A stretch of 64,000 nt of DNA, taken from contig CAZDPG010000001.1 in assembly GCA_964507275.1 (NCBI GenBank), forward strand, positions 340,577-404,576. Reading direction: 5' to 3'. Origin of the DNA: an uncultured Candidatus Saccharibacteria bacterium (GTDB taxonomy: Bacteria; Patescibacteriota; Minisyncoccia; Phycocordibacterales; Phycocordibacteraceae). Below, piece after piece: positions 2,087 through 54,974 of the stretch. Both the position numbers and the translations under genes were made by a program. Each line of letters begins with the position of its first letter. Positions within the stretch are counted from its first letter, which is position 1. The notes under the pieces are model-generated. The model made no database searches, was not told the DNA's origin, and saw only the letters and a list, made by a program, of their open reading frames with translations.

Positions 2087-2932
2087 ATGATACCATCGCC
2101 GACAATGGGCACACAAATCCTTCTCATCATCGGACCGACCGCGTCCGGCAAATCCTCGCGGGCGGTGGCGGAAGCGCTCGCACGAGGCGGCGAGGTGATA
2201 TCGGTCGACTCGCGCCAAGTCTACCGCGGACTCGATATCGGGACGGAAAAGATAACCGCCGAGGAGATGCGCGGCGTGCCCCATCACCTGATCGACATCC
2301 GCGAGCCAGGACAGACGTATTCCGCGGGCGATTTCGTACACGACGCGACACGGTTGATTTCTGAGATCTCGGCACGAGGAAAATTGCCGATACTCGCTGG
2401 TGGCACGCACTTTTATTTCGACGCGCTCCTCTATGGCCTGCCGATTGGGACTGATGCGAATCATGAGCTCCGCACCGAGCTCGAGAAACTTTCGACTGAA
2501 GAGCTGTATGCGCGCGTCTGCGCTCGGGATGCCCGCCGAGCTGCCGAGCTCGATCCGCAGAACCGGCGGCGACTCATCCGCGCACTTGAGATCATCGAGG
2601 CGAGAGGAACAGTACCGGAAAGAGTTTCGTCTGCACCGGATTACACAGTCGAATGGATTGTCATCGATCCTCCGCGCGAAGAACTGCGGGCACGTATCGA
2701 CGCTCGCATCGAAGAAGCTCGCGCGCGCGGTCTCATAGACGAAGTGCGGCACGTGCGTGAGGCGGTCGGCGAAGCCCGTCTGAATGAGCTCGGTCTTGAG
2801 TACAAAATTGTCGGCGAATACCTGCGCGGAGAAATTATGGAAATAGATCTCCTCCCCACGCTCAAGGCAAAGCTGTGGCAGTACGCACGCCGCCAGAAGG
2901 CGTGGCTGCGCAAGCTAGAACAAACACGTTAA
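2087..2932 (+). CDS. miaA: tRNA dimethylallyltransferase MiaA
   Basis: P-loop IIGPTASGKS, DSRQVYRGLDIGTEK and HHLIDI motifs. The start may instead be M at 2105. Confidence 0.9.
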   Translation: MIPSPTMGTQILLIIGPTASGKSSRAVAEALARGGEVISVDSRQVYRGLDIGTEKITAEEMRGVPHHLIDIREPGQTYSAGDFVHDATRLISEISARGKLPILAGGTHFYFDALLYGLPIGTDANHELRTELEKLSTEELYARVCARDARRAAELDPQNRRRLIRALEIIEARGTVPERVSSAPDYTVEWIVIDPPREELRARIDARIEEARARGLIDEVRHVREAVGEARLNELGLEYKIVGEYLRGEIMEIDLLPTLKAKLWQYARRQKAWLRKLEQTR

Positions 2933-3816
2933 TCAAGACCCGCGTCGCAGCCGCAACCATTCTGTTGCCCTACACTCACATGCAGATGATTCCCTTCGTT
3001 GAGCGAACTTGCTCCGCACTGGTTCGCTATCGTCGCGAGTGCATTCAAATCTCCAGCGAGGTCGACAGCATATGAGGAGCCTGTGCAATTCCGCCCACCA
3101 TAGTGACAGGAGTTAGCGGTGTGGGCGCACCCTATCTTCTTGCCACTCGCTGCACATTGTTCGATGGTGGCCTTGCCGCTCGTGATGGCGCTATCTGAAA
3201 TTGAGGTGATGATGGCATTTTTCGTCAGCTTATCGCTCATGCAAGACAAAAGCCCAGCAAGCGGAACCGATTCGGTAACTACTTGAGCATCTATACCTGG
3301 ATTAAAAGTGAACTTCCCTGCTCCACCGCCGGGAGTAACGCCGAGAGTCGGGATACCGGTCTGCTGAGCCTGGTTCAGGCTCGCCTTGAGAGGAATGCAG
3401 AAGTCGCCGCCGCCCGTCGTGATGAGGTTCGTCCAAGTACTGCCCGCGTCTTTAGGATTGTAGAGCACTGCCATGACGGCATCGACTATCATCCAGCCCG
3501 CAAGCGCGATAACAATACCAGTGACAGTATTCGTGAGGATCTTTTTCGCTGCCTCTTTCCCCCCTGCATTCACCGGATTGAGGACAAAGAGAAAGCCGGA
3601 GTAAGCGATCATCAGCGGCGCGATGAAGACGATGACGATTGTCAGGAGGAAGCTGATGAGGTTATTAATCACGATCATGAGTAATCCCCAGCCTGCCGCG
3701 CACTGGTTATACGCTTCGGGGATGATAGGGCCGAAGAACGGCACTCCTGCGTATGCAAACTGCGGCAGAACGAATGTCCCGAGCAGGAGGATGAATACTG
3801 GAATGCGGAAACGCAT
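2929..3816 (-). CDS. secreted VirB2/TrbC-like (T4SS-pilin-like) two-helix membrane module fused to a Cys-rich C-terminal domain with LAS-type zinc-peptidase-like motifs
   Basis: Signal peptide, then hydrophobic helix, PLMIAYSGF...GGKEAAKKILTNTVTGIVIALAGW, then a second helix. This is the same architecture as the six small paralogs at 16.2-18.4 kb. The C-terminal ~165 aa has about 10 Cys and the motifs SCHYGG...AVDL and EGNHLHVSVG (compare SxH..G.A.D / ExxH or HLH of M15/M23 peptidoglycan peptidases). Confidence 0.55.
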   Translation of the reverse strand: MRFRIPVFILLLGTFVLPQFAYAGVPFFGPIIPEAYNQCAAGWGLLMIVINNLISFLLTIVIVFIAPLMIAYSGFLFVLNPVNAGGKEAAKKILTNTVTGIVIALAGWMIVDAVMAVLYNPKDAGSTWTNLITTGGGDFCIPLKASLNQAQQTGIPTLGVTPGGGAGKFTFNPGIDAQVVTESVPLAGLLSCMSDKLTKNAIITSISDSAITSGKATIEQCAASGKKIGCAHTANSCHYGGRNCTGSSYAVDLAGDLNALATIANQCGASSLNEGNHLHVSVGQQNGCGCDAGLD

Positions 3817-13157: not shown

Positions 13158-13715
13158 ATGTGGATAGTTGTGCATATTGCTCTACCAGTATGGCATAATC
13201 AATATATGGACCGTCGTCGAACCTGGAACCTTCTACAGCTCCGTAAGGCGGTCAAGACTTCTACGAGCACCCGACAAGTTATCAAGAAACTTGGCCTTGT
13301 TCCTGCTGGAGGTAATTATGTACAAGTTTCTAAAGCAATCAGTGATCAGAAATTGAGTACATCTCATTTCAAGGGACAAGGATGGAACAGAGGGATGAAG
13401 GTCCCTAAGGAGCCGATTTACAAACTGGAAGAGATTTTAGTTCCTAATGGTCACTATAATTCATATCGTCTAAAACAACGTCTCTTCAAGGAGGGGCTTA
13501 AAACAGCGGAATGTGAAGAATGCGGGTGGGCTCAAATGAGCCCCGATGGACGCACACCAGTTGAAATCGACCATATAAATGGAAATCACTCTGATAATCG
13601 AATCGAGAACTTGCGCATCCTCTGCCCCAATTGTCATAGCTTAAAACCCACTCATCGTGGTAAAAATAAGGGTGTCAGCCGGAGTGGCGAAATTGGTCAG
13701 ACGCATCGGGCTTAA
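13158..13715 (+). CDS. free-standing HNH homing-endonuclease-like protein (AT-rich insert); its 3' end overlaps the downstream tRNA-Leu
   Basis: HNH motif ECEECGW...VEIDHINGNHSDNRIENLRILCPNCHS. Markedly AT-rich compared with the flanks. The true start is probably MDRRRTW at 13206. Confidence 0.75.
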   Translation: MWIVVHIALPVWHNQYMDRRRTWNLLQLRKAVKTSTSTRQVIKKLGLVPAGGNYVQVSKAISDQKLSTSHFKGQGWNRGMKVPKEPIYKLEEILVPNGHYNSYRLKQRLFKEGLKTAECEECGWAQMSPDGRTPVEIDHINGNHSDNRIENLRILCPNCHSLKPTHRGKNKGVSRSGEIGQTHRA

Positions 13716-13768
13716 AACCCGAAGAGAGCCTAAAAACCCTCGTGTGGGTTCGAGTCCCACCTCCGGCA
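13678..13768 (+). tRNA. tRNA-Leu (anticodon TAA)
   Basis: Acceptor GCCGGAG/CTCCGGC, D-arm GGCGAAATTGGTCAGACGC, anticodon stem TCGGG/CCCGA with loop CTTAAAA, T-arm GTGGG-TTCGAGT-CCCAC. The long variable region is not cleanly resolved by eye. Confidence 0.6.
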
Positions 13769-13817
13769 CAAAGTTCTATTGAAGAGAATGCATTCATCGT
13801 GTAAAGTTTCTTCTATT

Positions 13818-14093: not shown

Positions 14094-15437
14094 ATGTTCA
14101 AGGAGATTCTAATCATCGGCGGGCTGGTGGTGGTAATCGCCATTCTGACGCTCGCCATAATCCTGCTACTGTCGAATCTTGGCGCTTACTTCACAAAGAT
14201 AGCCCAGGGCACGACGGTCTTCATCAGTGCCGGCGAAAGCCTGCAGGACATCCTGCCGAATATCGGCGGATACAGAATGTCCAATGATCAAGACATCGAC
14301 GGGCGTCATTGGCTCGTCGCGGAAGCAACTGAAGAAAAGAGGCTCGCCGCGTTTTTCCACAACGCTCAGAAAGGAACCGTATGGTTTCAAAAATGGCTTT
14401 GGAAAAAATTCGGTGTAAAGCTCATCAGCTTGTTCTGGCCCCACACCAATGTCCATTCGTTCGACATACGGAAAGGAGGCCGGAGGAGGATTGAAGCACG
14501 CACAGAAGTCGGGCCTGAAGCCCCTCTCCGATCCCGCGTGATAGATTCACCTGAAAAAAGCACCCTTGTCAGTTCCCTTCTCTTCATGGTGCCTCGACCG
14601 ATATATGTGGAGGGAATCGAGCTTGCGGGGGACAACTCAAGAATCAACCTTCTGCTTCTTCCCGTCTTCCGACAGGTCATCCCGGCCTTACCGGTGTATT
14701 ACCTCAAGGGCGACTTCTTCACCCTGATTGATGCGGCCGTAGAAGCCGCCATGGTCGATTTTTTCGCCCGACACCGCGTAGCGGTGTATAAGGATGGTGA
14801 GAAAAAGGGGCAGTTTGCTATGGACTCCTACGAGTCCTCGCAAGCGGAACACGAGGAGAGCCCCCTGACCTACTCCCTCTGGCTAAAGCTCACCAAGGCT
14901 GGTGAAGGATCGCCGATGGAGAAGAAACTTCGCAATCTCAACGTAAGCAAAGAGTATCTTGCCAAGTTGAAGGCGGATGGGGGAAAGGAGGAGCTTGTCG
15001 ATTACATCAAAAAACACCTGATTGTCGGTGAGCCAACCGACGTGCCATCGGCGAGCGCAATCTCTGGGATGATTCCAAACGGAATTGTCCCTCGATTCGG
15101 GTTCGCCTTGGTAAGTTTCAGAGTAGTCGAATGGGAAGCTCACAAGAGCACGGTCGCTCTAGCTGAATCTCTTCTGGCAAAGGAAATAGAGCTTCACACG
15201 GCAGAAGGCGTTCGGCAGAAGGCAATCGGGGAAGGGGCCGCTATCCTAGAGCGATCTGCGGCGGAATCAAGCCGTTATGAGCGGCTCTTGAAAGCCCTCG
15301 TCGACAAGGGAGTAACTCCAGATGTCGCTGCCCAAGTCATAGCAACACAGCTCCGGACGGAAAACATCCGGGATGGCAAAGTCACAACCTATGTCGAAGG
15401 GGCGGCGTCGGCCACAGTGATGGTTCCTACCGCCTGA
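14094..15437 (+). CDS. hypothetical membrane-anchored protein (N-terminal TM; helical C-terminal region faintly SPFH/band-7-like)
   Basis: 447 aa ORF with RBS-like aaggag upstream. No confident motif. Confidence 0.4.
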   Translation: MFKEILIIGGLVVVIAILTLAIILLLSNLGAYFTKIAQGTTVFISAGESLQDILPNIGGYRMSNDQDIDGRHWLVAEATEEKRLAAFFHNAQKGTVWFQKWLWKKFGVKLISLFWPHTNVHSFDIRKGGRRRIEARTEVGPEAPLRSRVIDSPEKSTLVSSLLFMVPRPIYVEGIELAGDNSRINLLLLPVFRQVIPALPVYYLKGDFFTLIDAAVEAAMVDFFARHRVAVYKDGEKKGQFAMDSYESSQAEHEESPLTYSLWLKLTKAGEGSPMEKKLRNLNVSKEYLAKLKADGGKEELVDYIKKHLIVGEPTDVPSASAISGMIPNGIVPRFGFALVSFRVVEWEAHKSTVALAESLLAKEIELHTAEGVRQKAIGEGAAILERSAAESSRYERLLKALVDKGVTPDVAAQVIATQLRTENIRDGKVTTYVEGAASATVMVPTA

Positions 15438-15464: not shown

Positions 15465-16112
15465 ATGAAGTTCTTACTTACTGCGGCCATATCTCTGGCC
15501 GCGATTGCCCTGTTTCTTGGGGTGGTGAACATGCTTAAATCAAGGAAGCAAACAGGAAATGGCGATGGGTGGTGGTCCATGAAATACTTATGGGTCATTC
15601 CCCTCATCCTCGTCGGTGTTGCAATCTTCTACTTTGGGGTAAATCCATTGGGCTGGAAGTCGCCAAGTCTTGTGGATGTGGTTGCCATGAAGAACGCTTA
15701 CTGGTTCCACATCCTCATCGTCCTCGGCGTTGTCTACTTTCTCGCCGCCCGTTCGGAAGAAAAAGTGGCGAAGGAAACGGCAACCGCTGTCCTGGCAATC
15801 TCGGCATTCATGCTCTTCATCGGGTTCCCGGTGTGGGTGTGGGTCACAGGACCGAGCACGGCAGTAGCCGCAAGCGAAGCACGAGTGCTCTCGATGCCGC
15901 CTGGCGGGAAGTCAGCACGCATTCCCGTTCCGTACCAAAAGCAAGTCGTGATGGATGGGAAAGACTTCCGCTATCACTGCGTGTATCAGGACGGACGCGA
16001 GGAGTCATTCGGGGAAGGAGAGCGTCCGTGTACGAGCGGCAACCTGCCGTTCGTCTACGCGACGAACCTCCGGGAGAAGGAAAGTAATGTGGTCACCTAC
16101 TCCTACAAGTAA
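15465..16112 (+). CDS. hypothetical polytopic membrane protein
   Basis: 215 aa with about 4 predicted TM helices, then a soluble tail. Ends at a bidirectional terminator. Confidence 0.4.
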   Translation: MKFLLTAAISLAAIALFLGVVNMLKSRKQTGNGDGWWSMKYLWVIPLILVGVAIFYFGVNPLGWKSPSLVDVVAMKNAYWFHILIVLGVVYFLAARSEEKVAKETATAVLAISAFMLFIGFPVWVWVTGPSTAVAASEARVLSMPPGGKSARIPVPYQKQVVMDGKDFRYHCVYQDGREESFGEGERPCTSGNLPFVYATNLREKESNVVTYSYK

Positions 16113-16132: not shown

Positions 16133-16170
16133 CAAAAGCCGCACGGTACTCCCGCGCGGCTTTTTTCTTT
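16133..16170. terminator. bidirectional hairpin terminator (aaagccgcacgg...ccgcgcggctttttt)
   Basis: Inverted repeat plus T-run, between the convergent gene 15465-16112 (+) and the pilin array (-). Confidence 0.55.
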
Positions 16171-16184
16171 TCTCTGTCCTTTTC

Positions 16185-16457
16185 TTAGTGACCGGTTATT
16201 TTCGTAATCGGCGTAATGCCGAATGTGCCGAGCGCGAGATTGATGAGACCGTAGGCACCGAAGATGATCACGAGCCCGACGAGACCCCAGAGGATGGCAC
16301 TACGCCCTTCGACCCGCTTCCCTTCGTCACCCGCGTGAACGATGAACTCGAATACGCCCCAAAGAAACGCCACGAATGCAGTCGCCGCAAGAAGCAGGAT
16401 AATCGGGTTGATTATCTGCACGACAACCTTCTCAAGAAATGTTTCGAGGACTGGCAT
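16185..16457 (-). CDS. VirB2/TrbC-like pilin paralog 6 (no signal peptide)
   Basis: Shares IINPIILLLAATAFVAFLWG...EGKRVEGRSAILWGLVGLVIIFGAYGLIN with its neighbours. Starts 0 nt after paralog 5. Confidence 0.6.
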   Translation of the reverse strand: MPVLETFLEKVVVQIINPIILLLAATAFVAFLWGVFEFIVHAGDEGKRVEGRSAILWGLVGLVIIFGAYGLINLALGTFGITPITKITGH

Positions 16458-16835
16458 TTAGCCGCCAATCTGGACACCAGCTTTCGGTGTACCGCCTGAT
16501 ACGCCCGACGTATTGCTGAAGCTGACCGTGCCCGTGAGGATGTTGACGAGACCCCAGACAGAAACCATCACGAAGAAACCGATGAGACCCCAGAGCATGA
16601 GGTTCTTGCCCTTCTCCTTCACGTCATCAGAGTTAGCTCCCAGGATGAACGTCGTGAACGCACCCCAGATGAAGACGATAAACGCGACCGCGAAGAGTAC
16701 CGGAACGAGCACGTTGTTAATGATATTGATAATGAAAGAACCGACGTCTGCGATGTTCCCTATCGCGGCATATGAGATGAGTGGCAAAGCGAAGGCGGCG
16801 AATGTTCCAGTGGTCAGGGCGAGAGCTTTTTTCAT
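16458..16835 (-). CDS. VirB2/TrbC-like pilin paralog 5 (signal peptide plus two helices)
   Basis: MKKALALTTGTFAAFALPLISYAA signal peptide. IINIINNVLVPVLFAVAFIVFIWG...KEKGKNLMLWGLIGFFVMVSVWGLVN. Confidence 0.65.
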   Translation of the reverse strand: MKKALALTTGTFAAFALPLISYAAIGNIADVGSFIINIINNVLVPVLFAVAFIVFIWGAFTTFILGANSDDVKEKGKNLMLWGLIGFFVMVSVWGLVNILTGTVSFSNTSGVSGGTPKAGVQIGG

Positions 16836-16925
16836 AGAATGAGTGAACGGTTAATAGAGTAATTGTAGCCTGTGGGCGATACGGGTCAATGCACCTGTGT
16901 CCGACGTGTGGATAAGCCGAGCTTC

Positions 16926-17291
16926 CTAAAGGGTTGGGTAGTTCGGGGCCGTCCCTCCGGCTGAGAGACCGAACGTGCTTCCTACGACCGCGACGAGGCC
17001 CCACATCGAGAGTATGACGACGAACCCAATGATGCCCCAGAAGACGAAGTCCCGACCTTCCTTGCGCGATTCTTCTTTGGTCGCACCGAGGATGAAGTAT
17101 TTATATACGCCCCAGAGGAACGTCAAGAACGCGAGGGCGAAGAGTACCGGCACGAACACGTTGTTGATGATATTGATGATGCTCGAAGAATACCCAGTAA
17201 CGATACCCATATTGATGCCCGTACCTTGGGCAGACGCGAGAAGAGGGGCAGCAAACGTAAGCGGTGCGATGAGCCAGGAGATCTTTTTCAT
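16926..17291 (-). CDS. VirB2/TrbC-like pilin paralog 4
   Basis: Trimmed to MKKISWLIAPLTFAAPLLASAQG (signal peptide). IINIINNVFVPVLFALAFLTFLWG...RKEGRDFVFWGIIGFVVILSMWGLV. Confidence 0.65.
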   Translation of the reverse strand: MKKISWLIAPLTFAAPLLASAQGTGINMGIVTGYSSSIINIINNVFVPVLFALAFLTFLWGVYKYFILGATKEESRKEGRDFVFWGIIGFVVILSMWGLVAVVGSTFGLSAGGTAPNYPTL

Positions 17292-17296
17292 ACTTC

Positions 17297-17740
17297 CTAA
17301 TACGATCGCGGCAATTGAGGCGCACCAGCACCAGTAAGTCCGAAAGTGTTTGCGACGACATTCACGAGACCCCAGAGCGACACCATCACGACGAACCCTA
17401 TGAGGCCCCAAAGAACCAGCTTATGCCCTTCTTCAACCTCGCCCGGCTCACCATGAGAAAAGATGTACGCTTTGGCGATGCCGTACAGGAACGTGAGGAA
17501 TGCAACCGCGAAGAGTACTGGCACGAGGATGCCATTTATGATGTAGAGGATTGTGGAAGCGACGCAGCCGATACCGCCGGAACATGCACCGAAAAACGGT
17601 CCCGATGCTGAGATAAAGCCGTATGAATAGCCGGTGTTTACCGTCTGCGGACCGCCACCGACCCCGACCGTCTGCGCGAGCGCGAGCGCGGGAGTGAGAA
17701 ACACAGCAAGCGATGCGAGGATACGAGCGGGTATTTTCAT
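17297..17740 (-). CDS. VirB2/TrbC-like pilin paralog 3 (Gly/Cys-containing N-terminal extension)
   Basis: Trimmed to MKIPARILASLAVFLTPALALAQ (ATG 17740). ILYIINGILVPVLFAVAFLTFLYG...EEGHKLVLWGLIGFVVMVSLWGLVN. Confidence 0.65.
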   Translation of the reverse strand: MKIPARILASLAVFLTPALALAQTVGVGGGPQTVNTGYSYGFISASGPFFGACSGGIGCVASTILYIINGILVPVLFAVAFLTFLYGIAKAYIFSHGEPGEVEEGHKLVLWGLIGFVVMVSLWGLVNVVANTFGLTGAGAPQLPRSY

Positions 17741-17759
17741 ATGCGATAAGTATGACACA

Positions 17760-18029
17760 CTACACGCCTGATGCGATGCCGAGCGTGGATAACAGTATCT
17801 TGACGAAGCTCCAGACTGAGAGGAGTACGACAATGCCGATGATGCCCCAGAAGACGAACTGCCGGCCCTCGGCACGTTTCTCTTCACTGCCGCCATGGAA
17901 GAAGAAATAGTTTGCCACACCCCAAATGAACACAGCGAAGGAGAGCGAGAAGATAATCGGCACGATGACAAGATTGATGACGCCGATAATCCCGCTCGAG
18001 CTGCCGCCAATGAATTGCGCGAAGGTCAT
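17760..18029 (-). CDS. VirB2/TrbC-like pilin paralog 2 (no signal peptide)
   Basis: VINLVIVPIIFSLSFAVFIWG...KRAEGRQFVFWGIIGIVVLLSVWSFV. Starts 3 nt after paralog 1. Confidence 0.6.
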   Translation of the reverse strand: MTFAQFIGGSSSGIIGVINLVIVPIIFSLSFAVFIWGVANYFFFHGGSEEKRAEGRQFVFWGIIGIVVLLSVWSFVKILLSTLGIASGV

Positions 18030-18032
18030 GAA

Positions 18033-18440
18033 TTATCCGCCGAGCGACTTCACCGTCGCCTGGATGGCCAGCGATATAGCCTTGGCACCCAAGAGGACGA
18101 GCGCACCGATAATCGTCCAGAGGAGCATATTCTTGGCTTCGTTGAGCTTCGTATCGCTTCCCTGTGCTACGACGAACTTGTACCCGACGAATACGAGCAT
18201 CAGGATGATAGCAATAGAGCCGATGCGGATGATGAACTCGAGGATGCTTGTGAGGAACGATTCGAGACTCGTACCCGACTTGAGCGGATTCATGAGCGTG
18301 ACACTCGACCCGGTGTTCTGGCCTCCGGTGAGCTCATAGCCCCCCGTGTTCTGGCCGCCACCAAGAGAGACTGCATGCGCCGCGACCGCCCCGACGGAAA
18401 GCGATGAGAGGAAAACGAGTGCAATGAGTAGTGATTTCAT
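18033..18440 (-). CDS. VirB2/TrbC-like pilin paralog 1 (signal peptide, Gly-rich linker, two helices)
   Basis: MKSLLIALVFLSSLSVGAVAAHA signal peptide. ILEFIIRIGSIAIILMLVFVGYKFVVAQGSDTKLNEAKNMLLWTIIGALVLLGAKAI is a classic TrbC/VirB2-type pilin core. Confidence 0.65.
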   Translation of the reverse strand: MKSLLIALVFLSSLSVGAVAAHAVSLGGGQNTGGYELTGGQNTGSSVTLMNPLKSGTSLESFLTSILEFIIRIGSIAIILMLVFVGYKFVVAQGSDTKLNEAKNMLLWTIIGALVLLGAKAISLAIQATVKSLGG

Positions 18441-18441
18441 A

Positions 18442-19752
18442 TTATTTTTGCAGAAGAGATGAGAGTGAACCCTCGCTGAGCGTGAGCGCCATGCCAGGAT
18501 CGAGACGGCCGCTTATCACACCGGTAATCATACTTGAGAAGATAGGATCCGTAGCGGCAGGCAGTGGGGACAACCATCCCTTGGCATACAGCGCCTCGGC
18601 ATACGCAACGGTGGCAATCGGATCGGCTGGTACGGTCGCCAACTGATTCAGGGTCGCTGGAGCGAGTCCGGTCAAGGTTGCGGCGGAGATCTGGGGAGCC
18701 GAGCCCGTGAGGAACGCAGCCGCCAGGTACGCCCCGGAAGCGTTCTTCGCACCGCGGGGAATCATGAACGAGTAAACGAGCCCATAGGCACTCTTCAAGT
18801 TCGCTGTCGCTGGCTGCGGGAGTGGCGATACGATGAAACTGAGATTCGGGTTTGCCGACCTGAGGAATCGAGCCTCAGAGACGTAGCCGAGATAGAGCGC
18901 GAGATCTCCAGCGAGGAATGCTTGCTGCGAGTTCTGGAGCGATGCATTCCAGGTATAGGAGACCTTCGATGGGTCAGCAAACTGCGTATAGAAGTTGAGA
19001 ACGGCCTGCCCCGGTGTTGCGTTATCGGAAGAAGCTCCGCTTAGATTGGCAGCGAGTTCGCCATTCATATACACAGAGAGCGGAATGCCTGTCTGAAGGA
19101 AGAGCGAGGAGAGGATGCCGCGTGCATTACGAACATTTTCGTAGGTACCAAGTGCGATGAGCCCGCGAGTGACCTGTTTCGTCGGAGTAATCTGGGCGAC
19201 ATGCGGCACGAGACCAGTGAGTGCCTCCCATGTCTCCGGAGGCTTCGCAACGCCACTCGACGCGAGGATAGACTGATTCGAGAACAGCACAAGCGGATCG
19301 ACGAGAAATGGCAGGCCGTAATAGCCCACTCCGTCTGGCGTGGCGAGCATCTTCCCTTCTTCGATAAAAGCGTTGTTGAACGCCGACACCGGGAGCGTCG
19401 AGAATGGTATTGGCACGATGATCTTCGTGAGCGCGTGCAGTTCTTCCTGTGAAGTAAGGACCAGGTCAGGAGCCTCACCGACCGCTATCGCAGCAGCGAG
19501 GTCTGAAGCAACCGTGCTTCGATCCTTCTGCACATAGGAAACATCTTTCATGGACTCCTCCGCCTGCGCGACCGCAATGAGGACGGCCTGCATATCCGCT
19601 TTCGGGAGCGTGCCCCAAATGACGACCGTGCCGATTGCGGTGTTGCCTGCGCGAGAAGCATCACCGGTGTGTGTCGCGAAGACGTAGAGACCAATCATCG
19701 CTCCGAGACCGAAGACACCGAACAAAATTCCTTGGAAGAGAGATATTTTCAT
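18442..19752 (-). CDS. membrane-anchored extracellular solute-binding protein (SBP family 1-like), orphan
   Basis: N-terminal TM anchor. SBP-1-like segments GTVVIWGT, YYGLPFLVDPLVLFSNQ, PETWEAL, AFLAGDLALYLGYVSE. No adjacent ABC permease or ATPase. Stop is 1 nt before the pilin paralog 1 start. Confidence 0.5.
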   Translation of the reverse strand: MKISLFQGILFGVFGLGAMIGLYVFATHTGDASRAGNTAIGTVVIWGTLPKADMQAVLIAVAQAEESMKDVSYVQKDRSTVASDLAAAIAVGEAPDLVLTSQEELHALTKIIVPIPFSTLPVSAFNNAFIEEGKMLATPDGVGYYGLPFLVDPLVLFSNQSILASSGVAKPPETWEALTGLVPHVAQITPTKQVTRGLIALGTYENVRNARGILSSLFLQTGIPLSVYMNGELAANLSGASSDNATPGQAVLNFYTQFADPSKVSYTWNASLQNSQQAFLAGDLALYLGYVSEARFLRSANPNLSFIVSPLPQPATANLKSAYGLVYSFMIPRGAKNASGAYLAAAFLTGSAPQISAATLTGLAPATLNQLATVPADPIATVAYAEALYAKGWLSPLPAATDPIFSSMITGVISGRLDPGMALTLSEGSLSSLLQK

Positions 19753-19755
19753 AGA

Positions 19756-20292
19756 TTACGGTGCGGTGAATATGATTCCATAATGATGCGGGCCGGCGCG
19801 AAACGATTTCACTTTATGAAAACCGCTCTGGATGAAGAGTTCCTCGGCATCACGCTCGGATACGACTCGTTCCGGAACCGGGCCCATGCCGCCATAGCTC
19901 CCCGCCCAATCGACGACAAGGATCTTGCCTCCTGATTTAATGACTCGCTTCATCTCCGCAATGAGACCAGAGCGGTTTTCAATCTGGAAGAGAGCATTCG
20001 CGAGGATAATCGCATCGAGCGACGCGTCCCGCAGGTGTGTGCCTCCTGCCTTCTCAACATCACCCCAGACCGTCTCGATACTGCTCCGATGCTCTTCGTG
20101 CGTGTTTAGCTTCAGGTGCTTCAGCACGTCTTCCTGCACGTCTACCGCATACACCTTGCCGTCATATCCCACGATAGGCGCGGCAGCCCGGGCGTAATGC
20201 CCCGAGCCGGTGCAGAAATCTCCCACCTTCATGCCTTCGCGCAATCCGAGATGGAGGACGTTCTCTCGTGGTGAACTGAAATGAGCGCTCAT
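19756..20292 (-). CDS. class I SAM-dependent methyltransferase
   Basis: Rossmann motif I DFCTGSGHYA and an acidic motif II. Confidence 0.7.
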   Translation of the reverse strand: MSAHFSSPRENVLHLGLREGMKVGDFCTGSGHYARAAAPIVGYDGKVYAVDVQEDVLKHLKLNTHEEHRSSIETVWGDVEKAGGTHLRDASLDAIILANALFQIENRSGLIAEMKRVIKSGGKILVVDWAGSYGGMGPVPERVVSERDAEELFIQSGFHKVKSFRAGPHHYGIIFTAP

Positions 20293-44632: not shown

Positions 44633-44875
44633 CTACGCGGCAATACCGAGTGTCGAGGCGAGCCGCTCCTGGTCGAAACCGATAATCATCTCGTCGCCGA
44701 CGAATATCACCGGTACGCCCATCTGTCCGGACCTCTGAATCATCTCCTGGCGTTTCTCAAGATCGCTCGCCACATTGTGTTCCGTGTAACCAATTCCCTT
44801 CTCTTTAAGGAACTCTTTGGCCATCTGACAGAAGTGACACGTCGGTGTGCTGTAAATAGTTACATTTTTATCCAT
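44633..44875 (-). CDS. glutaredoxin-family redoxin (NrdH/Grx-like, CxxC = CHFC)
   Basis: 80 aa. VTIYSTPTCHFCQMAKEFL...GVPVIFVGDEMIIGFD is a typical glutaredoxin fold. Confidence 0.75.
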   Translation of the reverse strand: MDKNVTIYSTPTCHFCQMAKEFLKEKGIGYTEHNVASDLEKRQEMIQRSGQMGVPVIFVGDEMIIGFDQERLASTLGIAA

Positions 44876-45007
44876 ATTCGTAGGTGTTATAGAGCGAGTA
44901 TATCACGTGCCTCAAAAAGTGGTTTCCGTGGATAAATGCTTGCGAAACATTCGTCCTGTGTCTTTATAACAAAGAGGACTCGTCATGATGACCGAGTCCT
45001 CGACGTT

Positions 45008-54923: not shown

Positions 54924-54974
54924 TTCTTACCCTCAAGTTTACTCCTCCTCTCGGTAAACGCCATGTGGATAGGA

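Follow-up and report, generated by a model that had tools for sequence, protein, structure and literature searches.

Among the pilin-gene arrays of Patescibacteria we describe one that forms part of a conserved operon of eight genes and that probably, taking the reading as a whole, encodes a heteromeric pilus-like structure tied to the secretion system of type IV (T4SS), together with a binding-protein partner. The operon lies on a 64,000-nt stretch of DNA from an uncultured, ultrasmall groundwater patescibacterium, a Kaiserbacteria-like member of the Paceibacteria (contig CAZDPG010000001.1, positions 340,577 to 404,576), to which we refer throughout as the window. It consists of a methyltransferase gene, a gene for a membrane-anchored, MalE-type solute-binding-like protein (hereafter the binding protein) and six paralogous open reading frames (ORFs), c1 to c6, of the T4SS pilin family. 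Purifying selection acts on all eight genes. The six pilins are ancient, non-interchangeable paralogs that keep fixed positions across species, each of them constrained in its own right. The binding protein is inherited together with pilin arrays throughout the phylum as their dedicated partner, and some lineages have T4SS core genes directly adjoining the module. Those parts of the reading that concern family and operon can be held with high confidence, and the model of assembly that we build upon them is evenly balanced between right and wrong.

Arrays of this kind have been reported before. In Southlakia epibionticum, six PF18895 pilins (SEML1_0014-0019) were found by Wang et al. within a T4SS cluster that is essential (PMC10633639). 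Quinonero-Coronel et al. surveyed 441 arrays of 2-11 pilin genes in 383 assemblies in 2025, with a mean identity of 25% and a maximum of 54%, and antigenic or host-range variation was suggested as their purpose (PMC12102498). A review of 2025 called the array 'remarkable' and speculated that the pilus serves as an uptake conduit (PMC12857230). In the one genetically tractable patescibacterium the T4SS and its pilin array are essential; their role has been called completely unknown, and reviewers have speculated that molecules of the host are taken up through them (PMC11665869, PMC12857230); Patescibacteria are also known to depend on imported nutrients (PMC11665869).

A six-gene PF18895 array as such is already known, and the present one, with six tandem genes of 23-51% identity, falls within the published description of 2-11 tandem or one-gene-separated genes of low identity, at most 54%. 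What we did not find in the literature is the MalE-type partner (often accompanied by the methyltransferase), the ordered set of orthologs, the leaderless members, the fused pairs and a promoter with a DnaA-box-like element. Our literature search, of incomplete coverage, returned no report of a link between such a binding protein and pilins, and neither such a protein nor the methyltransferase is mentioned in the accessible parts of the Southlakia and Quinonero-Coronel texts and supplements.

Six divergent members of the T4SS pilin family

Scored as whole proteins against PF18895 (T4SS_pilin; gathering cut-off 26.6 bits), each of c1 to c6 independently exceeded the cut-off, with 31.3-38.8 bits and E-values of 1e-7 to 1e-10, and their membership of this family is established. 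The sequence core that the copies have in common is genuine, well above anything that chance would give. An initial annotation of the window, made from its letters and a list of its ORFs, had already taken the six for pilins of the T4SS type, and the profile searches uphold it: Pfam assigned none of the ORFs to an unrelated family, and no holin or immunity family was significant for any of the six in Pfam or NCBIfam. Their existence as minus-strand ORFs was likewise confirmed, both by ORF calls and by the gene calls of public contigs. The lengths first given for c1, c2, c5 and c6 were right, and those for c3 and c4 were each one residue too long (147 aa, not 148, and 121 aa, not 122).

The copies have diverged widely, sharing 23-51% identity in pairwise comparison, and c1 is the most divergent at 23-27% to the others. 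Every copy shows two hydrophobic stretches in a hydropathy scan, past the leader where there is one, and the alignment places a charged loop between them. Judged by eye and by hydropathy rather than with a dedicated predictor, c1, c3, c4 and c5 begin with a leader composed of K/R residues, a hydrophobic segment and an AxA-type motif; c2 and c6 cannot carry one, as each opens its reading frame right behind the stop codon that precedes it. An AlphaFold2 model of c5 comprises a leader helix followed by a two-helix hairpin (helices 28-68 and 70-104), with a predicted local distance difference test (pLDDT) of 75-90 in the core. The NCBIfam model NF045849 (Mbov_0395 family pilin-like conjugal transfer protein) is a near miss, at 36.7 bits for c5 and 36.1 bits for c4 against a cut-off of 40. 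As in the literature, homology of c1-c6 to the VirB2 of diderm bacteria is something that we infer.

A profile built from the six copies and run against all ORFs of the window matched the six and one other, the ORF at 2929-3816, which the initial annotation had listed as a further paralog. That assignment stands in part: PF18895 gives this protein 16.7 bits, below the cut-off, and a clade-specific profile matches it with an E-value of 2.9e-9. Besides a signal peptide and a distant pilin-like hairpin it possesses a C-terminal domain of ~170 aa, in which there are cysteines and for which no family matches; its gene lies between housekeeping genes (miaA-like and HIT/phosphatase). A weak TrbC match is on record for the c1 ortholog of one relative (L062).

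Fixed order and purifying selection

We scanned the six-frame ORFs of 50 species-representative loci encoding a relative of the binding protein with the six-pilin profile. Complete arrays were found in 19 species of a Kaiserbacteria-like clade, and these always comprise six genes whose best matches follow the order c1-c2-c3-c4-c5-c6; by best match, this order is seen in L011-L032 and L049. Median identity to the window ortholog across the 19 species is 55, 62, 63, 54, 75 and 71% from c1 to c6. When the window was compared with the relative whose binding protein is 94% identical, the ratio of non-synonymous to synonymous divergence (dN/dS) was 0.048, 0.082, 0.036, 0.035, 0.032 and 0.041 for c1 to c6, as against 0.072 for the binding protein, 0.031 for the methyltransferase and 0.013 for GyrA. 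Length is free to vary in two positions, c1 (119-368 aa) and c4 (96-310 aa), and is invariant in c2, c5 and c6. In c1 a linker rich in Gly, Gln, Asn and Thr, with GGQNTG present twice, separates the leader from the pilin domain.

The absence of a signal peptide from c2 and c6, noted at the outset, extends to their orthologs in the same 19 species. Nearly all c2 orthologs (85-95 aa) start MTFAQFVG, and those of c6 (86-99 aa) share the start M..LN.FL.KVV.QI.NPIILLL. Since dN/dS is low and length conserved, both are functional genes and not fragments; the notion that they are pseudogene fragments is ruled out by their ratios of 0.082 and 0.041 and by the same constancy of length. A recent split, which had been offered as their origin, is contradicted by their presence as separate, length-conserved genes under strong purifying selection in 19 related species. 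The predicted protein set is one of four Sec-exported pilins with a leader and two conserved leaderless hairpins, each of which appears translationally coupled to the copy before it.

Junctions of the leaderless copies and fused pairs

In the window the c1/c2 junction reads TAA-TTC-ATG and the c5/c6 junction TAA-ATG, and both are in frame. Among relatives the c1/c2 genes are mostly separated by 1-4 nt or overlap by 4 nt, mostly out of frame, and at c5/c6 anything between an overlap of 1 nt and a gap of 12 nt occurs, in mixed frames; one relative, with a binding protein of 82% identity, has a TAATG overlap there. Given this variation in frame and spacing, the in-frame TAA junctions of the window are coincidental; two in-frame junctions are expected by chance at about one in nine. 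The tight junctions fit ordinary translational coupling.

Programmed frameshifting or readthrough between the halves of a two-domain pilin, which the initial annotation had raised for both junctions, is a reading that we can hardly credit. It would have c1+c2 and c5+c6 each made as a single polypeptide, and it draws on the single TAA that separates each in-frame pair and on genuine fusions in distant lineages; the variable junctions of close relatives, including the TAATG overlap, speak against it, as do the conserved N-termini with which c2 and c6 begin from their own ATG. No suppressor tRNA was found in the window, and no recoding RNA at the junctions by Rfam match.

The idea of a two-domain pilin nevertheless survives outside the window. 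Stop-free ORFs with two PF18895 domains (di-pilins) occur in distant lineages, at L047 5560-6534, L052 6702-7544 and L055 5712-6611. In L052 and L055 the first domain is most similar to c1 and the second to c6 or c2 (32% to c2 over 77 residues), the two being joined by a linker of ~30 residues. A pair that is fused in one lineage and adjacent and coupled in another suggests that its members work as a unit.

A MalE-type binding protein, often with a methyltransferase, accompanies the arrays

The gene that precedes c1 by 1 nt had been annotated as an N-terminally anchored protein similar to family-1 solute-binding proteins, which was correct: both SBP_bac_1 and SBP_bac_8 match, and the protein has one N-terminal hydrophobic anchor (residues 2-28) and no lipobox cysteine. 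Searched against the PDB, its family profile retrieves MalE-type oligosaccharide binders (4r9f, 4qrz, 5ysb, GacH and MalE) with E-values down to 3.5e-34. The protein is 65-72% identical in more than 100 protein clusters. A motif NFYTQFAD...Y.WN, represented here by NFYTQFADPSKVSYTWN (residues 253-269, nt 18946-18996), is invariant or nearly so in relatives down to 23-33% overall identity, and it could be a family signature or an interaction patch.

In 46 species-representative loci of Patescibacteria, same-strand pilin ORFs lie directly downstream of the binding-protein gene in essentially all cases where the contig continues. This adjacency persists at 25-30% identity of the binding protein, in loci that include some named Moraniibacteria and Nomurabacteria. 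A second, independent sample was drawn from metagenomes and consisted of 80 distant members of the binding-protein family, 65 of whose loci have at least 500 nt of downstream sequence. A pilin ORF starts within 700 nt of the binding-protein gene in 63 of these 65, and it is this ORF, not a permease gene, that is the next one recognised within that distance; the arrays contain 2-11 pilin genes, with a median of 5. No genes for the permease or ATPase of an ATP-binding cassette (ABC) transporter were found beside the binding protein, in the window or its flanks. The description of this protein as an orphan, first applied for want of a permease or ATPase nearby, is right to that extent; its position is not incidental, being that of a conserved upstream partner of the arrays across Patescibacteria.

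A methyltransferase homolog directly precedes the binding protein in 41 of the 46 species loci (the distant L052-L055 included) and in at least 29 of the 65 metagenomic loci, and it is also present in the loci L097 and L103, which adjoin VirB4. It is a frequent neighbour of the module.

Contiguity with T4SS genes in distant relatives

Three distant loci place the module next to T4SS genes. In L056, where the binding protein is 30% identical over almost its full length, one strand encodes in order a VirB4-like protein (P-loop_TraG, 99.6 bits), a protein of 468 aa, the binding protein, three pilins, a protein of 373 aa, an Amidase_3+M23 wall hydrolase, a protein of 335 aa and a further pilin. 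In L097 the order is methyltransferase, binding protein, pilin, pilin, a PrgI family (VirB3-like) protein, a protein of 232 aa and a VirB4-like protein, and by sequence match L103 has the same gene order. The link of the module to the T4SS is one of guilt by association, which these lineages suggest after the remaining gene order has been lost.

Positions 1-15331 of L056 form a compact T4SS-like cluster, in which proteins of 921, 253, 468, 373 and 335 aa are without a Pfam match. The 253-aa protein recurs beside VirB4 in L097 and L103.

An internal promoter with a DnaA-box-like element before c5

The spacer between c4 and c5 contains, on the minus strand, a DnaA-box-like element TTATCCACA (16907-16915), a -35 element TTGACC (16884-16889) and a -10 element TACAAT (16862-16867), followed by a 26-nt leader without a Shine-Dalgarno sequence. 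With 10 of 12 positions matched, this predicted promoter is the best sigma-70-type match in the region. Its layout, (T/C)TATCCACA, 17 nt, TTGACC, 16 nt, TACAAT, 25-26 nt and ATG, is near-invariant in ~20 Kaiserbacteria-like species, and the bases between the elements vary freely across ~20 related species. The spacer itself is mostly 77-130 nt long in nearly all of the 39 loci that yielded one, and 29 of these 39 spacers contain the 9-mer with at most one mismatch, compared with 1.6% of shuffled spacers.

The composite of box and promoter occurs once in the window, where none is expected, and the 9-mer at 16907-16915 is the only perfect copy of TTATCCACA in the 64 kb. It matches perfectly the classical DnaA box consensus, TTATCCACA / TTWTNCACA. 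In more distant clades TTGTCCACA or TTTTCCACA stands at the same place, and the DnaA-box-like motif is particular to the Kaiserbacteria-like clade together with its neighbours. We rejected it as a property of such arrays in general: in 80 distant loci its density was 0.13 per kb inside arrays and 0.18 per kb elsewhere.

Of the six pilins c5 is the most conserved: more than 100 clusters share 77-86% identity with it, and its length there is almost always 125 aa. Both dN (0.007) and dS (0.224, with ~0.3-0.53 for its neighbours) are at their lowest in this copy, and a second independent comparison gave a dS of 0.88 against 1.2-1.6 for the neighbours, a low synonymous divergence that would fit a highly expressed gene whose codon usage is under selection. 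Promoter, conservation and synonymous divergence together suggest that expression is highest for c5, along with the coupled c6.

Copies of the 9-mer with one mismatch also lie in intergenic DNA before two other genes, that for ribonucleotide reductase (54964-54972) and one for a small glutaredoxin (44868-44876 and 44927-44935), where the promoter layout differs from that of the pilin spacer. Genes of both types are regulated by DnaA in other bacteria, and these sites may be taken as a lead towards a DnaA regulon.

Organisation and context of the locus

Eight closely spaced minus-strand genes occupy 16185-20292 (Table 1), and the successive gaps from the methyltransferase gene to c6 are 3, 1, 3, 19, 5, 90 and 0 nt. 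The operon-like arrangement proposed in the initial annotation, with short gaps on one strand, is thus upheld, and one of its counts is not: spacers of 0-5 nt occur at three of the five junctions within the array (3, 19, 5, 90 and 0 nt), not at four, and at four of six if the junction of binding protein and c1 is counted. The methyltransferase gene is probably the first of the operon; gyrA lies upstream of it, across a gap of 227 nt. Downstream of c6, the hairpin at 16134-16164 has a folding energy of -24.4 kcal/mol (z -4.1), which none of 200 shuffles equalled, and this terminator-like structure appears to close the operon and to be shared with the convergent gene 15465-16112.

Table 1. Features of the pilin operon and the related ORF in the window (positions of the 64,000-nt stretch)
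Feature	Position	Strand	Support
Class I S-adenosylmethionine-dependent methyltransferase, 178 aa	19756-20292	-	Pfam Methyltransf_11/25/31, Ubie_methyltran
Membrane-anchored MalE-type solute-binding-like protein, 436 aa	18442-19752	-	SBP_bac_8 70.6 bits, SBP_bac_1 55.0 bits
Pilin paralog c1, 135 aa	18033-18440	-	PF18895 31.3 bits; putative signal peptide
Pilin paralog c2, 89 aa	17760-18029	-	PF18895 31.9 bits; leaderless
Pilin paralog c3, 147 aa	17297-17740	-	PF18895 35.4 bits; putative signal peptide
Pilin paralog c4, 121 aa	16926-17291	-	PF18895 38.8 bits; putative signal peptide
c4-c5 spacer with predicted internal promoter, 90 nt	16836-16925	-	Conserved layout and sigma-70-type match
Pilin paralog c5, 125 aa	16458-16835	-	PF18895 33.4 bits; putative signal peptide
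Pilin paralog c6, 90 aa	16185-16457	-	PF18895 33.1 bits; leaderless
Terminator-like hairpin	16134-16164	-	13-bp stem, A-run and U-run flanks
Distant pilin-domain protein, 295 aa, outside the operon	2929-3816	-	Clade-specific profile 33 bits

An identical locus is present on 21 public groundwater contigs, and independent gene calls on these give the same eight genes. The longest that we examined, ENA ERZ909573 k127_29331, has 360,794 bp and holds the window at bases 128,799-192,798. Close relatives are labelled Candidatus Paceibacterota or Kaiserbacteria in their source records. Its context, in the window and 10 kb on each side, consists of housekeeping genes only, among them gyrA, infB, rbfA, clpB, ftsZ and the ribonucleotide reductase gene. 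The Pfam families recorded for the called genes of this same interval include none for VirB4, VirB6, VirD4 or PrgI, which bears out the earlier statement that the window is devoid of VirB4, VirB6 and VirD4 genes. No phage or bacteriocin context was seen around the array. An Rfam scan of the whole window recovered RNase P RNA and tRNAs only, and neither the array nor the c4-c5 spacer gave a match. A tblastn search with c5 against 72,556 plasmids found no match and so gives no link to known mobile elements.

Two plus-strand genes for membrane proteins, 14094-15437 and 15465-16112, converge on the end of the operon, neither with a family match. The latter encodes a protein of 215 aa that is found in the same place in 11 related loci at ~30% identity (57% in the closest, L011). 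Further off, four clustered tRNA genes enclose an HNH-endonuclease-like ORF (13158-13715, plus strand), which overlaps tRNA-Leu (13678-13769) at its 3' end and is absent from most related loci.

Discussion

The assembly model may be set out as follows. All six proteins would go into one heteromeric structure, pilus-like or lining a channel, as its major and minor subunits. It would be assembled by the VirB4 machinery of the monoderm type (derived from MPF-FATA) that is found in Patescibacteria and that would here be encoded outside the window. As the most conserved copy, with the lowest synonymous divergence and a strong promoter of its own, c5 would be the bulk (major) subunit, and the predicted second, internal promoter would stand before c5-c6. 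The c1-c2 and c5-c6 genes may act as pairs, since other lineages have the counterparts of c1 and c2 in fused form. The binding protein would sit on the outer face of the membrane as a glycan-binding receptor, an adhesin or an assembly or docking factor, and not as part of a classical ABC importer.

Several observations weigh against this reading. To our knowledge no pilus has ever been seen for the PF18895 family. The diderm family PF04956 (TrbC/VirB2) gives c5 15.2 bits (E 0.025) and c6 11 bits and does not reach its cut-off of 27.9, and the pilin profile retrieves nothing from PDB sequences at E-values up to 10. With the c5 model, a Foldseek search of the PDB yielded 58 helical-hairpin matches, none of them reaching E 0.001, and the 50 listed at the top contained no pilin; a helical hairpin is too simple a shape for such a search to be diagnostic, so that homology is neither supported nor excluded by it. 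The AlphaFold2 model of the binding protein, from 30 homologs, has a pLDDT of 40.7 and is unusable for a pocket or an interface. In close relatives the conserved gene order also spans unrelated housekeeping genes (gyrA, infB), and the weight of the argument rests on the distant loci. Among ~110 informative loci, the module stands beside VirB4 in only three. The window and the 10 kb to either side of it contain no T4SS core gene, and we assume that this organism has a cognate T4SS. The T4SS cluster of Southlakia, the one studied by experiment, has pilins but no such binding protein.

Other explanations must be set against these. It is improbable, in our judgement, that the array holds six alternative forms of a single major pilin, retained so that antigens or host range can vary, as has been proposed for the VirB2 arrays of Bartonella and Anaplasma. 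Variation has been proposed for Patescibacteria arrays also (PMC12102498), identity within the array is low, and c1 and c4 have surface-exposed linkers or tails of widely varying length; yet each position has its own ortholog in 19 species, in fixed order and at a median of 54-75% identity, dN/dS of 0.03-0.08 gives no sign of diversifying selection, and all copies are tightly coupled in one operon. Two conserved leaderless forms, besides, imply distinct roles rather than interchangeable variants. That the pilin name misleads and the ORFs are small membrane proteins of some unrelated family (holins, bacteriocin immunity proteins and c-ring-like subunits come to mind) seems next to impossible to sustain. 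The two-helix hairpin is generic, the fold search was without significance, no solved pilin matches by sequence, and a pilus function of PF18895 has never been demonstrated; against this stand the significant PF18895 scores of all six, where no holin or immunity family is significant, surroundings free of phage or bacteriocin genes, relatives linked to VirB4 and PrgI, and Southlakia pilins that overlap with TrbC matches.

Two further alternatives concern what the module does with its binding protein. It might work without any T4SS, as a bindosome-like surface complex for nutrient capture or uptake or as a new multi-subunit permease, which we regard as unlikely. The housekeeping context, without T4SS core genes within ~84 kb, would suit such a module, as would a MalE-type carbohydrate-binding fold that is always encoded beside pilins, with no ABC permease adjacent; six hairpins amount to 12 membrane helices, and Patescibacteria need imported nutrients (PMC11665869). 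The same pilin family, however, is found in the essential VirB4 cluster of Southlakia, the module is contiguous with PrgI and/or VirB4-like genes in L056, L097 and L103, and a number of pilin genes that ranges from 2 to 11 fits a filament with accessory subunits better than a permease of fixed composition. Somewhat more doubtful still is the view of the binding protein as a normal receptor of an ABC importer that has its permease and ATPase genes at another site, so that the place of the receptor gene before the pilins would reflect only co-expression or inherited order. Its Pfam domains are the ordinary SBP_bac_1/8, orphan solute-binding proteins that use distant permeases do exist (PrgZ of pCF10 with the host Opp is one), and the surrounding gene order (gyrA, infB) is generally conserved in the clade. 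Its adjacency to pilins outlasts all other synteny, though, being kept when identity is down to 25-30%, where gyrA is missing from the locus, and within T4SS clusters; the next gene is a pilin and not a permease in 63 of 65 loci; and the family has an invariant motif of its own.

Compared with the arrays already known from Patescibacteria, in Southlakia and in the survey, this one is alike in belonging to PF18895, in its tandem divergent paralogs, in its chromosomal location and in having no relaxase nearby. It differs in lying neither within nor beside a VirB4 cluster, in being preceded by a MalE-type protein and a methyltransferase, in its two conserved leaderless members and in its make-up, which is not variable but consists of orthologs in a fixed order; it also comes from Paceibacteria, where the surveyed arrays are mostly from Microgenomatia and Saccharimonadia. 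With VirB2, TrbC and TraA of diderm bacteria (PF04956) the six proteins share small size, a long leader, two hydrophobic helices and a short charged loop, and the diderm genes too are multicopy in some pathogens. The present host is a monoderm, however, with no VirB5, no cyclising peptidase and no neighbouring VirB3-B11. The closest curated NCBI model, NF045849, which c4 and c5 match with 36-37 bits over nearly all of its 80-position profile, describes Mbov_0395 / MMCAP2_0565 of mycoplasma integrative and conjugative elements. Mbov_0395 belongs to a monoderm conjugation system of the MPF-FATA type, a class thought to be ancestral to the T4SS of Patescibacteria; it is a single-copy gene in a mobile element, whereas here there is a six-gene chromosomal operon with a binding protein, scoring below the cut-off of 40.

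Solute-binding folds have been tied to T4SS elsewhere. PrgZ of pCF10, an MPF-FATA system, is a pheromone-binding OppA homolog and a family-5 peptide binder; ChvE of Agrobacterium is a sugar-binding activator of VirA, of the ribose/galactose type, with its own ABC transporter. Both resemble the present protein in that a solute-binding fold is associated with a T4SS and no dedicated permease gene is adjacent, and both differ from it in that they are neither encoded beside pilin genes nor conserved with them across a phylum. In the bindosome (Bas) of Sulfolobus, small pilin-like proteins organise the surface sugar-binding proteins and are needed for their function. That system is similar in co-encoding pilin-like and sugar-binding proteins in a cell without an outer membrane, which is an analogy only: the Bas proteins are type IV pilin-like, with class III signal peptides and PilB/PilC-type assembly, and are unrelated to VirB2-like hairpins.

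Nothing in this analysis overturns what was known, and if none of the proposals holds, the locus is one more array of a known type. The ordered, distinct and conserved subunits, with their leaderless and fused forms, nevertheless argue against the published reading of antigenic variation and for a heteromeric assembly. As a speculation to which we give little credence, the module might be the substrate-capture end of the Patescibacteria T4SS, in which a MalE-like receptor docks on a heteromeric pilus or channel and passes nutrients or host glycans inward, the c5 gene being wired to DnaA in the Kaiserbacteria-like clade; if such an import role were true, a relative of type IV secretion would be working as an importer with a binding protein of its own, functionally like a bindosome. 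For an essential machine, a carbohydrate-type binding protein that is co-inherited with the pilins across the phylum, its gene at times placed between theirs and that for VirB4, is a tangible clue that can be put to the test. It offers a soluble domain on which ligands can be sought, a candidate partner of the pilus and, in NFYTQFAD...YTWN, a signature for phyletic profiling.

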